From NCBI GenBank assembly GCA_025934105.1, contig JAICYS010000001.1:15324-79323 (forward strand): a DNA stretch of 64,000 nt, read 5' to 3'. Made by a program: the position numbers and the translations under genes. Each line of letters begins with the position of its first letter. The first letter of the stretch is position 1. Positions 3,001-20,306 of this stretch are shown here, piece by piece. A model generated the notes under the pieces. It was not told where the DNA came from and ran no database searches. It saw only the letters and a list, made by a program, of their open reading frames with translations. Origin of the DNA: Myxococcota bacterium (GTDB lineage: Bacteria; Myxococcota_A; Polyangia; Fen-1088).

Positions 3001-4543
3001 CGGGCGCTTCGTCGAGATCGGCAAGCGCGACTACTACGAGAACAAGCGGCTGGGGCTTCGCCCGTTCCTGAAGAACCTGTCGTTCTCTCTCGTGAACCTG
3101 CGGGCGATGCTCGATCAGCGGCCGGCCGAGGTGCAGGCGACGTTGCGAGAGATCACGCGCCTCATCGAGGCCGGCCAGCTGCGGCCGCTGCCGATGCACG
3201 TGTTCGGGGTGTCGGAGGCGGCCGACGCGTTCCGCTTCATGGCGCAGGCCAAGCACACCGGCAAGGTGGTGGTGTCCATGAAGGACCCGGCGGCGCGGAT
3301 CGCGCGCTCGAAATCGGAGCCGCTGGCCTGCCGACTCGACGCGACGTTTCTGATCACGGGTGGCCTCGGGGGGCTGGGGCTGGAGGTGGCGAAATGGCTG
3401 GTCGCGCGGGGGGCCCGCCACCTGGTCCTCCTCGGCCGCGGCGCCCCGTCCGAAGCGGCGCACCAGACGATCGCCGCGCTGGCGGCCGAAGGGGCGGAGG
3501 TGACGGTCGAGGGCGCCGACGTGGCGCGCTCGGCGGAGCTGGCCCGCGTGCTGTCGAGCATCGCGCGCACGGGGCATCCGCTGCGGGGAGTCGTGCACGC
3601 CGCGGGCGTGCTGGACGACGGCGTGATCATCGAACAGACGCCCGAACGTCTGGGCAAGGTGCTGGCGCCCAAGGTGCACGGGGCCTGGAACCTTCACCAG
3701 CTGACCCGGCAACAGGACCTGGACTTCTTCGTGATGTTTTCGTCGGCGGCGTCGGTGTTCGGCGCGCCGGCGCAGGCCGGCTATGCCGCCGGCAACGCCT
3801 TCCTCGATTCGCTGGCGCACCATCGCCGCCGCCGCGGACTGGTGGCCCTCTCGATCAACTGGGGCGCCTGGGCCGAGGTGGGGTTGGCGGCGGCCCGGGC
3901 CAACCGCGGGCCGCGTCTGGCCACCCAGGGGATGCGGAGCCTGACGCCGGCCGAGGGAATCGCGGCGCTCGACCACTTGCAAGGGACGGACGCCGTACAG
4001 GCGACCGTGGTGCCGATCCAGGCGCGGCACTTCCGGCAGGCCAACCGCCGTTCTGCCGAATCGCCGTTCTTCGCCTATTTTCGGGAGACTGCCGCCTCGG
4101 GTGGAGAGAGCGGAACGGCCGTCAAGGAGCTGGCCGCGGCCGCCCCCGCCCAGCGCCGCCGGCTGCTGGAGGCGTTGCTCAAGCGCGAGGTGGCGCAGGT
4201 GCTGCGGATCGCGCCGGCGCGGATCGACGCGGCCACGGCCTTCGGCGATTTCGGGTTCGACTCGCTGCTGGCGATCGAGCTGCGCAACCGGCTGGAGACC
4301 AGCCTCGGCATCGCGCTGCCGACCTCGCTGCTCTGGAGCCACCGCACGATCGAGGCGCTCGCCCCCGAGCTGGCCGCCCGACTGGGCCTGGAGCTGGAAA
4401 GCGACGCCGCGCCGCTGGAATCGGCGCCGCCCGAAGCGAATCCGCCGGGCGACGCCGCGCCGCTGGACGACATGTCCGCCGACGAACTGGCGGCCGAACT
4501 GGCCCGCGAGCTGGGCGCGGCCGATCGGGGAGCCTCCAAGTGA
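2..4543 (+). CDS. Type I modular polyketide synthase, 5'-truncated by the window edge: (AT C-terminal part)-DH-ER-KR-ACP
   Basis: The frame is open from position 2 (AQVAGALSLDDA... is the stretch that follows GHSxGE in AT domains), so the listed start at 8 is only an internal GTG. Motifs seen: AT YASH (VDYASHCPQM, 281..292); DH HPLLG (788..802) plus LAHHLVNGRVVLPAAAY, YGAPF and LFDAALQ; ER LIHAAAGGVG (2738..2767); [10 protein letters not shown] (3356..3379), LDD, and Tyr in AGYAAGNAF (3782..3784); ACP GFDSL (Ser 4262..4264). An acidic docking-like tail precedes the TGA at 4541..4543. Confidence 0.93.
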   Translation, partial: AQVAGALSLDDAAKIITLRSRIVSRASGRGAMVVAEIGMARAEQLLAGAGDQVSVAASNAADSVILSGDPRALGAIVERLQREEVFCRYVDVDYASHCPQMDEFLPELVRALGTVSPLANTVRMISTVTAKPIQAAEMDAAYWGRNLRSPVLFHEAMQLLFRERHDTFLEISPHPVLAHVVDRALRQSADQGEAIPSLRRDQEPETALKSAAAALHVRGVALNWGALAAPGRLVDLPITPWRAERFWLEEGPARTKARAKTGHPLLGDAWVSSDEGRARFFQTEIDLESLEYLAHHLVNGRVVLPAAAYFEIALAAGRQVAGGQVRLADTELQAILQLEPGQAKTVQLVLVPEGRGWSFRLASLDASGDWTLHATGTLQADDGAARAPLAADEIRGRCAETFSGDELYQRMEEAGISYGAPFRGVQRGWRRDGESLTEIQAPESVARQCGSYQFHPALFDAALQSLAAAGSSQGATFLPVGAASIRVLAPAEPKLVCHGVLAPVPIGTDVLSGDVVLARPDGTPVLEVRGLRVRRVGRSEGTFADWLYGIDWVESTREPSAKGAPVAGGRWLLGGGGPTRNRVAQLLESAGDRCRPFASADELQRALKEAVAAQTEIRGVVCLDALDEDHAELAPGAAPPACQSLLAAAQAVVKAGFRTAPRLFAATRATQPVNGGDQGGPDEAEAGRRLLAGAPLWGFIRSLAHEHPELRPTAVDVSATPDDDELRRLADELRADSAESQVALRGPRRYVARLTRRRGGEAARVAPDGRPFGLDLVRPGTFEGLELHERPRTPPGPGEVEIEVHAAGLNFLDVLMSLGVLPNDAATGSRLGGECAGVVAAVGAGVDGLKVGDQVIGVGPSCFASYVTLRSALVVPKPPSLSMEQAATLAVTFLTAHISLLQIGRLAKGERVLIHAAAGGVGLAAVQIAQQAGAEIFATAGSEDKRAYLRSLGVAHVMDSRSLDFAEQVRAATANQGIDVVLNSLAGAFIPSSFDLLRDYGRFVEIGKRDYYENKRLGLRPFLKNLSFSLVNLRAMLDQRPAEVQATLREITRLIEAGQLRPLPMHVFGVSEAADAFRFMAQAKHTGKVVVSMKDPAARIARSKSEPLACRLDATFLITGGLGGLGLEVAKWLVARGARHLVLLGRGAPSEAAHQTIAALAAEGAEVTVEGADVARSAELARVLSSIARTGHPLRGVVHAAGVLDDGVIIEQTPERLGKVLAPKVHGAWNLHQLTRQQDLDFFVMFSSAASVFGAPAQAGYAAGNAFLDSLAHHRRRRGLVALSINWGAWAEVGLAAARANRGPRLATQGMRSLTPAEGIAALDHLQGTDAVQATVVPIQARHFRQANRRSAESPFFAYFRETAASGGESGTAVKELAAAAPAQRRRLLEALLKREVAQVLRIAPARIDAATAFGDFGFDSLLAIELRNRLETSLGIALPTSLLWSHRTIEALAPELAARLGLELESDAAPLESAPPEANPPGDAAPLDDMSADELAAELARELGAADRGASK

Positions 4544-20306: not shown

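Follow-up and report, generated by a model that had tools for sequence, protein, structure and literature searches.

A carrier-less ketosynthase and a predicted diiron protein form a terminal cassette at the convergent junction of a hybrid PKS/NRPS cluster

How is a polyketide chain completed at a locus where two assembly lines run towards each other and neither ends in a fused release domain? The question is raised by the stretch of DNA analysed here, 64,000 nucleotides from a Myxococcota bacterium (hereafter the window), in which ten large reading frames extend across 64 kb, all of them intact, and the region studied is where the two strands of a single hybrid cis-AT PKS/NRPS cluster, from an uncultured soil bacterium resembling a myxobacterium, converge. 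On the plus strand, gene A (8..4543; AT-DH-ER-KR-ACP by Pfam) is partial, leaving the window at its left edge, and is translationally coupled to gene B (4540..11130), the final plus-strand PKS module, to which Pfam and motifs assign the domains KS-AT(YAFH)-DH-ER-KR-ACP. The ACP of B (approximately 10744..10944) is followed by a 61-aa docking-type tail (10945..11127). The upstream portion of the minus-strand line comprises genes J, I, H, G and F (20303..62049): J carries a loading module (KS remnant-AT(GQSIG)-ACP) and two fully reducing modules, I and F (20303..25873) are KS-AT-DH-KR-ACP modules, H is KS-AT-DH-KR-ACP-Cy-A-Ox-PCP, and G is KS-AT-DH-ER-KR-ACP, its KS being the post-NRPS KS. Since J has a loading module of its own, the minus-strand chain starts within the window. 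The line continues into gene E (14268..20306, minus strand; M8 in the earlier note), read by Pfam as KS(C-H-H)-AT-DH-ER remnant-KR-ACP-tail, with the ACP at 14427..14642 and a 52-aa tail at 14271..14426. Decayed domains are frequent in this cluster, with a KS remnant in J, an ER remnant in E and, in the window copy, a dead AT in E.

Only two proteins are encoded between B and E, both on the minus strand. Gene D (11951..14275) specifies a 774-aa free-standing type I KS without a carrier protein, and gene C (11136..11954) a 272-aa remote member of PF10118, predicted to be a ferritin-like diiron oxidase or oxygenase. The pairs E/D (ATG..TGA) and D/C (GTGA, 4 nt) overlap, and the stop codons of the convergent genes B and C lie 5 bp apart; no terminator was found in this 5-bp gap, the sole match being a weak hairpin within C. 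At the ends of B, D and E, Pfam detected no thioesterase (PF00975), NAD-binding reductase or C domain (PF00668). The earlier note had described two lines ending in B and E with no fused TE, reductase or C domain and only a KS and a diiron protein between them, and both statements are borne out, the second by the ligand set and predicted fold of C given below. The free-standing type II thioesterase (GHSLG; 63373..64000, minus strand) that it listed as partial is real and extends beyond the right edge.

Gene D retains the layout of the front part of a module. A class-2 docking head (14171..14275) is followed by the KS (12941..14170; PF00109/PF02801), a KS-AT linker (12641..12940), a dead AT remnant (12176..12640) and a post-AT linker (11954..12175). 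The remnant covers only positions 1-119 of the 319 of the Pfam AT model; its active-site Ser is replaced by Gly (GDGFG) and the small subdomain is deleted. These last three elements, the linkers and the dead AT, had been missed in the earlier note. With GDGFG, a truncated AT and no PP-binding domain, D lacks what an elongating cis-AT module carries. The protein matches type I PKS KS models, namely PF00109/PF02801 with the KS-AT linker families and type I PKS models of NCBIfam, and the StlD/DarB family model is absent among its 25 NCBIfam matches listed. Cys193 (EAACASS; codon at 13697..13699) and the second catalytic His (NIGHLE) are kept, and Tyr328 (VEAYGSGT; codon at 13292..13294) stands where the HGTGT motif would have the first catalytic His. 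The window copy thus has the combination that defines a KS0, the Cys kept and the HGTGT His lost (C193, Y328). The orthologue at a second locus, L001 (VEAHGSGT), and a distant cousin at a third, L006 (VEGHGAGS), do not have it, as both have His at this position and Tyr is confined to the window copy. The description of this KS as decarboxylation-incompetent is consequently fair for the window copy, with Tyr328, and not for L001 and L006, which keep Cys-His-His; that the substitution is not conserved in the orthologue had been overlooked. All other KSs of the window keep Cys-His-His.

Among 5.8 billion proteins searched, only one orthologue of D was found, and minimal modules of the type KS-AT-ACP(-TE) are numerous among its nearest database relatives. 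At 85 columns that are invariant in the other eight KSs, the D KS departs from the consensus at 15 in the window and at 13 in L001, with nine deviations common to both, compared to two to nine in control KSs and 20 in the post-NRPS KS of gene G. This pattern points to an old functional divergence. Four of the six changes at conserved columns that are specific to the window copy lie within catalytic motifs, and the deletions in the two AT remnants, window and L001, are of unequal size. A recent origin of D by duplication of an adjacent KS was rejected, given approximately 50% identity (45-54%) to every KS of the window.

Gene E also has a dead AT (17937..18611, minus strand), which the earlier note had not reported. 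GDGLG (18324..18338) stands in place of GHSxG, and a 79-aa in-frame deletion removes exactly one subdomain, the small one. The AT of the L001 orthologue is intact (GHSLG/YASH), and the lesion is thus found in the window copy only. The remnant is clearly orthologous to the AT of E in L001, and its origin as a gene-conversion copy of the D remnant was rejected. Because of Tyr328 and the dead AT in E, the D protein of the window would be unable to extend a chain, and the loss of the AT also suggests that part of this particular cluster may be declining in function.

The ligand residues of C, E51, Q76-E77-x-x-H80, E132 and H164-x-x-E167-E168-x-x-H171, are invariant in 17 relatives, with the two motifs encoded on the minus strand at 11715..11729 (QEARH) and 11442..11465 (HMAEEAEH). 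C itself matches PF10118 weakly but above threshold (35.0-35.2 bits, gathering cutoff 33.2), and all 17 aligned relatives match the model, with a best E-value of 5.7e-44. The family is titled Metal_hydrol, a 'predicted metal-dependent hydrolase', which is a prediction only. The AlphaFold2 model is all-helical with a pLDDT of 93, and its best Foldseek neighbours were ribonucleotide reductase R2, stearoyl-ACP desaturase, R2lox and aldehyde-deformylating oxygenase (ADO), all as weak matches (TM 0.35-0.46, E >= 0.065). The ligand set and the predicted fold together support the assignment of C to the ferritin-like diiron superfamily, whose hallmark is a four-helix bundle with two ExxH motifs and two additional carboxylates. 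Such proteins are rare: only 14 relatives were found in 1.84 billion representatives, and plasmids gave no match. Against PDB sequences, the profile returned nothing at E <= 10, and the single sequence returned only chance matches to VIM lactamases at E > 1. No NCBIfam model matched C or six relatives, and the DarA-type model was likewise unmatched by C. An identity of C as an AurF/CmlI-type N-oxygenase was not supported by these searches, as Pfam gave PF10118 only and neither AurF nor CmlI appeared in the best 50 Foldseek matches. Literature searches on PF10118 or COG3687 found nothing informative, and those on a pairing of a KS with a ferritin-like protein found no described case. We know of no biochemical function for any PF10118 member.

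The arrangement is not peculiar to the window. The order PKS, KS with deleted AT, and C, facing a convergent B-like gene, is kept in L001, in L002 and on the metagenomic P0004 contig, and the stops of the B-like gene and C lie 3-5 bp apart in every orthologous contig. The reading frame of D and its stop/start overlaps with E and C are conserved. Compared with the L001 orthologues, dN/dS was 0.23 for D (KS 0.20, AT remnant 0.35) and 0.19 for C, against 0.20 and 0.23 for the working modules A and B and a highest value of 0.34 for E; these are Nei-Gojobori estimates on sequence of 73% GC, for which we rely on the comparison between genes rather than on absolute values. B is 83% identical to its L001 orthologue, and C shows no acceleration in the window lineage. 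These results support the view that D and C are not debris but form a true functional unit with which a TE-less operon closes at its 3′ end.

A distant version of the pair was found in L006, where a type I KS whose AT is likewise gutted precedes the diiron gene P0008, the stop of the KS gene overlapping the start of P0008 by 4 nt. The KS gene reads KS(C-H-H)-linker-AT remnant (AHGAG, Pfam AT positions 1-115 of 319)-post-AT linker, and beyond the cassette lies an unrelated, convergent small ORF and no second PKS. The diiron proteins are 23% identical and the KSs 41%. As the ordinary KSs of the window are 45-54% identical to D, the two cassettes could be of independent origin. That D and C are under purifying selection like A and B, with a conserved overlap, and that the pair recurs in L006 makes an unusual terminal step plausible. 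We conclude that the D/C pair is a real, previously undescribed terminal cassette.

Other relatives of C have PKS, FAS or further acyl-ACP genes as neighbours. In L005, one directly follows a KR-ACP-TE gene; in L008, one follows a single fully reducing KS-AT-DH-ER-KR-ACP PKS without a TE; and others lie beside a type II TE (L007), beside a fatty-acid desaturase (L009) or, in Pseudomonas (L010), within a type II FAS-like operon of FabF, ACP, flavin-reductase and acyl-ACP-desaturase genes. FabF-like KSs were present within 8 kb in 12 of the 17 scanned loci, and the contexts of P0006, P0011 and P0014 were housekeeping or too short to inform. In the window, L001, L006, L005 and L008, the cassette or the lone diiron gene is the last gene past the final PKS gene. 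The C family is thus not characterised by paired assembly lines, nor by the lack of a TE, and the occurrence of a relative behind a fused TE speaks for a tailoring role of C and against one as release catalyst.

The docking elements indicate which carrier D may meet. The tails of B and E share an L-S/P-x-D/E..E helix with the internal tails of J, I, G, F and A, in agreement with the docking-type tails already noted on both final ACP proteins. The tail of E is nearest to that of I, and the head of D is nearest to that of H, I-to-H being a collinear cognate pair; by this analogy, E and D would interact through class-2 (curacin-type) docking. The head of E and the tail of B are outliers in the cluster, and the modules may in reality act in the order B, E and then D.

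We tentatively propose, as a reading somewhat short of an even chance, that the cassette is a terminal station for the oxidative processing of a single chain, with release left to the type II TE or to a factor encoded beyond the window. Most likely, the cassette acts on the last carrier-bound chain through acyl capture and O2-dependent oxidation. D would dock on the tail behind the ACP of E through its class-2 head, and we infer that the full-length chain passes to Cys193. The window D would then serve as an acyl-holding or transacylating partner that does not extend the chain, its AT hollowed out to a scaffold, and C would be the O2-activating enzyme, oxidising a C-H bond by hydroxylation, desaturation or a similar reaction within a saturated segment of the chain while this is bound to the carrier or the KS. 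The release left to other factors would be by hydrolysis or cyclisation. As L001 and L006 keep Cys-His-His, the KS may, at the level of the family, still condense and not merely hold or transfer. Against a simple transfer of the chain stands that D has no ACP and that the window encodes no free-standing ACP as acceptor.

Two known systems resemble this proposal. The first, the terminal KS0 of the enacyloxin PKS, is the subject of Masschelein et al. (Nat Chem 2019), which is reference 29 in PMC13324335. In that pathway, KS0 reportedly performs a dual transacylation that moves the chain to the carrier protein Bamb_5917, after which the C domain Bamb_5915 acts. Like D, it is a non-elongating KS after the last ACP of a line without a TE and takes the finished chain off, and like the window D it lacks the HGTGT His. 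However, enacyloxin KS0 is fused to the last module and passes the chain to a discrete carrier for release by a C domain, whereas D stands alone, equipped with a docking head and a gutted AT and partnered by a diiron protein, its orthologues keep the full triad, and the window holds no acceptor carrier or C domain. In polyether pathways (monensin, nanchangmycin), the KSX/ACPX pair includes a terminal cis-AT KS-like transacylase that moves the chain to a site of oxidative tailoring before release. This combination of a terminal KS-like transacylase with oxidation before release is what we propose for D and C, but the polyether systems use a discrete ACPX, flavin epoxidases, epoxide hydrolases and a thioesterase of their own, and the window has none of these.

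The diiron component can likewise be compared with characterized enzymes. CylC-type dimetal-carboxylate halogenases have nine conserved active-site residues with the motifs QExxH and HxxDExxH (PMC12101540). The substrates of CylC and NocO are saturated acyl chains tethered to an ACP, and both enzymes are encoded in PKS or fatty-acid clusters (PMC12101540, PMC8406957), a setting like that of the relatives of C. As in these enzymes and in AurF-type proteins, the predicted diiron site of C lies in a four-helix bundle and includes a third His. By comparison of motif descriptions, QExxH has the same form in CylC and C, whereas C has HxxEExxH, with Glu in place of Asp. With E132 invariant, nothing points to an open halide site, and from the AurF family C is set apart by its sole Pfam match, PF10118. 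Among its best structural neighbours, stearoyl-ACP desaturase, R2lox and ADO are ferritin-like diiron proteins that handle lipids, the desaturase using acyl-ACP; the ligand set of C, with three His, differs from theirs, which contains two.

An alternative that we consider unlikely is that the cassette itself releases the chain independently of a TE, D off-loading it and an oxidation by C freeing the D thioester, for example by gamma/delta hydroxylation and lactonisation or by oxidative cleavage. The purifying selection on D and C, the missing TE, reductase and C domain at the ends of B, D and E, the constant terminal position of the cassette or diiron gene and the fully reducing L008 PKS, which also lacks a TE, are all consistent with such a role. 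It is weakened by the relatives of C that sit behind a fused KR-ACP-TE or beside a type II TE (L005, L007), and by the window itself, which encodes a type II TE and leaves approximately 47 kb of the 111,586-bp contig uncovered. Moreover, we know of no ferritin-like enzyme that releases thioesters.

It is also rather improbable that the genes form a single non-collinear line, J-I-H-G-F, (.., A, B), E, with an ordinary terminus elsewhere, in which D is the leftover of a decayed module and C a post-PKS oxidase. The outlying E head and B tail are compatible with a hand-off from B to E, decayed domains are common in the cluster (J KS, E ER, E AT), the deletion in the D AT remnant differs in size between the window and L001, and D has many minimal modules among its closest relatives. 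However, the dN/dS of the D KS equals that of working modules, its frame and overlaps with E and C are conserved, and the pairing of a KS with deleted AT and a diiron gene occurs again in L006. The docking head of D is retained, and its nearest relative is a working head.

The earlier note had put forward, as one testable model, that the pair joins or oxidatively releases two chains, one built from each strand, and in the joining form D would fuse them and C would oxidise or aromatise the adduct by analogy with DarB/DarA and the pyrone KSs. We regard this as very unlikely. It accords with the J loading module that starts the minus-strand chain in the window, the fully reducing genes A and B, typical of a lipid-like arm, the close convergent stops of B and C in every orthologous contig, the condensation-competent triads of L001 and L006, and the diiron relative that accompanies a fully reducing KS-AT-DH-ER-KR-ACP in L008. 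In addition, the KS and oxidase genes of DarB/DarA (StlD/StlC), which carry out a head-to-head condensation followed by an aromatase step, are adjacent, as D and C are. But the precedents DarB, StlD, MxnB and CorB, which fuse two acyl chains, are free-standing and FabH-like (KS III) (PMC6836626), whereas D belongs to the modular type I KSs and carries a linker and the remnant of an AT. The precedents use beta-keto and enoyl thioesters as substrates, but B would deliver a saturated acyl-ACP with an alpha-carbon that is not activated, in a window without a carboxylase. C has no DarA-type NCBIfam match, the window D is without the first catalytic His, the L006 cassette is followed by a small unrelated ORF rather than a second PKS, and L005 and L008 are single lines; fusion thus finds no support. 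Finally, that the window cluster is merely a copy losing function, with the dead AT of E and the His-to-Tyr change of D as early pseudogenisation, is hardly likely: although L001 has neither lesion, four of the six window-only KS changes fall in catalytic motifs and E has the highest dN/dS, the ten frames are intact over 64 kb, the E deletion is in frame and confined to one subdomain, C is unaccelerated in the window lineage and every other KS has its Cys-His-His.

The scaffold with which a polyketide ends up depends on chain release and terminal tailoring, the steps that engineering targets most often. Cassettes of this kind can be sought by a simple rule, a type I KS gene that lacks an ACP, has an AT both truncated and devoid of its Ser, and overlaps a PF10118 gene by 4 nt, and the natural variants, with Tyr328 and a dead E AT in the window and with His and an intact AT in L001, offer a ready contrast for the role of the KS. 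A bolder and doubtful extension is that a KS with a gutted AT and a PF10118 enzyme constitute a new, TE-independent ending, either by oxidative off-loading or by coupling the products of convergent operons; if true, this would be the first function for the PF10118 family. The pair of a free-standing KS and a diiron oxidase would itself represent a new type of terminal module and a new family of C-H-activating enzymes for carrier-bound, lipid-like chains.

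The 64-kb window (73% GC) consists almost entirely of one hybrid cis-AT PKS/NRPS cluster, which is incomplete within it. On the minus strand, J (47218..62049) begins (about 60000..62049) with a truncated KS remnant (ECAVIGAAFG..DPFWRAL, with ~290 residues missing), a loading AT carrying GQSIG in place of GHSxG and an ACP, a loading module that arose from a gutted full module, and continues with two fully reducing modules. Since J lacks a working KS, the minus-strand chain starts there. The gene at 62254..63321 (plus strand), which diverges from J, codes for a saccharopine-dehydrogenase-like NAD(P)-binding protein and lies in the only lower-GC stretch of the window (68%); a minus-strand type II TE gene runs off the right window edge. 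The minus-strand gene I encodes KS-AT-DH-KR-ACP, and H carries an added Cy-A-Ox-PCP module (FPLTDIQQAYWVGR, DLLTVD; nitroreductase-like Ox) in its C-terminal half (32280..36300, minus strand), predicted to place a thiazole or oxazole in the middle of the chain. G, also on the minus strand, is a fully reducing module whose KS begins without a docking head, as is usual for a KS that follows an NRPS module. F (minus strand; true start ATG 25873; KS-AT-DH-KR-ACP) is directly followed on the same strand by E (14268..20306), the carrier-less type I KS gene D (11951..14275) and the diiron-protein gene C (11136..11954), with overlapping stop and start codons at both the E/D and D/C junctions. A, which the left window edge cuts, and B (4540..11130) lie on the plus strand and each encode a fully reducing module; the stop codons of B and C are 5 bp apart. 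In the AT of B (6500..7100, plus strand) the specificity motif reads YAFHS and matches neither of the usual forms, HAFH and YASH; since the orthologous contig L001 keeps it, B may use an unusual extender unit.

In B, D and E, a Pfam search detected neither a TE nor a reductase or condensation domain, in agreement with an earlier note, made from the sequence alone, that both converging lines end without one. B and E terminate in an ACP and a tail of 52-61 aa whose acidic helix recurs in the internal tails of the cluster; this bears out the docking-type tails that it had described on both last ACPs. Its diiron protein between the lines was likewise confirmed: C is a ferritin-like diiron protein, with E51, Q76-E77-xx-H80, E132 and H164-xx-E167-E168-xx-H171 invariant across 17 relatives. 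The AF2 model (pLDDT 93) had as structural neighbours only diiron four-helix bundles (R2, stearoyl-ACP desaturase, R2lox, ADO), all at weak similarity (TM 0.35-0.46). Membership could be established only in the ferritin-like superfamily and, narrowly, in PF10118. Five close homologues, all metagenomic, were found in 5.8 billion proteins, and a full HMMER profile search gave 14 matches in 1.84 billion representatives; neither an NCBIfam model nor a solved relative was found for the family. The QExxH and HxxEExxH motifs have counterparts in AurF and in the CylC/NocO halogenases, which depend on an ACP (PMC12101540); these enzymes, together with acyl-ACP desaturases, are the nearest precedents.

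The KS of D retains Cys193 and the second His, and Tyr328 replaces the His of HGTGT. The KS is followed by a KS-AT linker, then by the stump of an inactive AT with GDGFG that covers Pfam positions 1-119 of 319, and last by a post-AT linker; like the dead AT of E, these parts were absent from the earlier note. Identity to each other KS in the window was ~50%, which rules out a recent copy of a neighbouring KS. At 13-15 of the 85 columns that do not vary among the other eight KSs, D carried a different residue, and nine of these deviating columns were common to the window and L001 orthologues. The same count gave 2-9 for ordinary KSs and 20 for the post-NRPS KS of G. D thus appears to be an old, divergent KS.

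L001 (17.7 kb), the sole orthologue covering D and E, retains the order PKS, KS with gutted AT, C, facing convergent B-like and A-like genes; a 70%-identical homologue also has a large convergent gene 4 bp away. The dN/dS values against L001, which are approximate at this GC content, were 0.20 for A, 0.23 for B, 0.19 for C, 0.23 for whole D (0.20 for its KS and 0.35 for its AT stump) and 0.34 for E, and C showed no acceleration in the window lineage. Together with the divergent, non-recent KS, this argues that D and C are maintained genes and not debris. The AT of E (17937..18611, minus strand) is dead in the window (GDGLG, with the small subdomain cleanly removed by a 79-aa in-frame deletion) and intact in the 73%-identical L001 orthologue (GHSLG, YASH), which points to a recent, window-lineage-specific loss. 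E also contains a decayed ER between DH and KR (about 15375..16920, minus strand; residues 1129-1645), which aligns at 30-35% to its counterparts in B, G, A and J, has lost the NADPH motif and is kept in L001. Where D of L001 has DTACSSS, VEAHGSGT (full triad) and GDAIE, the window copy has EAACASS, VEAYGSGT and SDAIE. Six changes at conserved KS columns occur in the window copy alone, and four of them lie in catalytic motifs. The decarboxylation-incompetent KS of the earlier note is therefore a fair description of the window copy, but not a family trait. In the window lineage, neither E nor D would still elongate, and their joint loss suggests, from two lineages only, that condensation by D, if ever used, depended on extender units from the AT of E.

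By local similarity, the head of D was nearest to that of H, and the tail of E to that of I. I and H are a collinear cognate pair, which supports docking of E to D. The head of E (20180..20306, minus strand) lacks the coiled-coil helix of all other heads, and among the tails that of B (10945..11127, plus strand) is the most atypical. The two outliers may be cognate to each other, which would give a non-collinear route from the plus-strand genes through B to E and D, in which the ordinary tail of F would dock to a head beyond the window.

A related arrangement was found on L006, a 3.5-kb contig. P0008, 23% identical to C, is overlapped at its start by 4 nt by the preceding gene, the 3' part of which encodes a KS (Cys, His, His), a linker, an AT stump (AHGAG, Ser to Gly, small subdomain absent, Pfam positions 1-115 of 319) and a post-AT linker, with no ACP. 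With D this KS shares only 41% identity, yet the architecture is the same; the two cassettes may have separate origins. Other relatives of C lie 20 bp downstream of a PKS gene that closes with KR-ACP-TE (L005), beside a type II TE (L007), after a lone KS-AT-DH-ER-KR-ACP synthase without TE or docking head (L008, 314..8049) and before a membrane fatty-acid desaturase (L009). In Pseudomonas fragariae (NZ_JAWHKR010000002.1, L010), a LuxI/LuxR-flanked operon (2233..11647) encodes FabF, flavin reductase, ACP, a FabF-like KS, MaoC dehydratase, FabG, a soluble acyl-ACP-desaturase-like protein and the PF10118 diiron protein. Similar operons (L012-L018, L021, L022, L025, L026) are conserved in proteobacteria; the type is apparently undescribed so far and its product may be a quorum-regulated oxidised lipid. 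A FabF-like KS is encoded no more than 8 kb away in 12 of 17 further loci. These neighbourhoods tie the family of C to KS/ACP machinery making reduced chains.

The best-supported reading, which we favour only tentatively, is that D and C form a terminal processing cassette acting on one chain. D would dock on the last ACP and take the acyl chain onto Cys193, C, as a three-His/four-carboxylate diiron enzyme, would use O2 to oxidize a saturated portion of the tethered chain, and release would fall to an enzyme outside the window or to the type II TE. That the cassette itself releases the chain would suit the TE-less ends, but with a type II TE in the window we consider it unlikely. Equally doubtful is a vestigial D beside an ordinary tailoring enzyme C in a non-collinear assembly line; the outlying head and tail fit such an order, and the dN/dS of D does not fit a vestige. 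The model of the earlier note in which D and C join two chains was weakened by four points: the L006 pair is followed by an unrelated small convergent ORF and no second PKS, with other relatives of C in single-line settings; one relative comes after a fused TE; the chain from B would be saturated and unactivated; and DarB/StlD and MxnB/CorB, the KSs known to fuse chains, belong to the FabH-like and not to the modular type I enzymes (PMC6836626). We regard it as improbable. Decay of the window copy, which its altered motifs might suggest, is just as improbable.

A literature search found no description of a KS with gutted AT paired with a PF10118 protein. D has its nearest precedents in the KS0 at the end of the enacyloxin PKS (reference 29 in PMC13324335) and in KSX, which is found in polyether clusters. 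The enacyloxin KS0 reportedly performs dual transacylation. Both systems possess a carrier that accepts the chain and an enzyme dedicated to release, but lack the gutted AT, docking head and diiron partner that D has. The pair draws on known kinds, a terminal non-elongating KS and carrier-directed diiron tailoring, and there is only a slim chance that it represents a genuinely new termination or coupling logic. For the organism, the loss of the AT of E should shorten or alter the product, and for the family, the lone synthase of L008 offers a minimal system where a PF10118 diiron enzyme could be studied.
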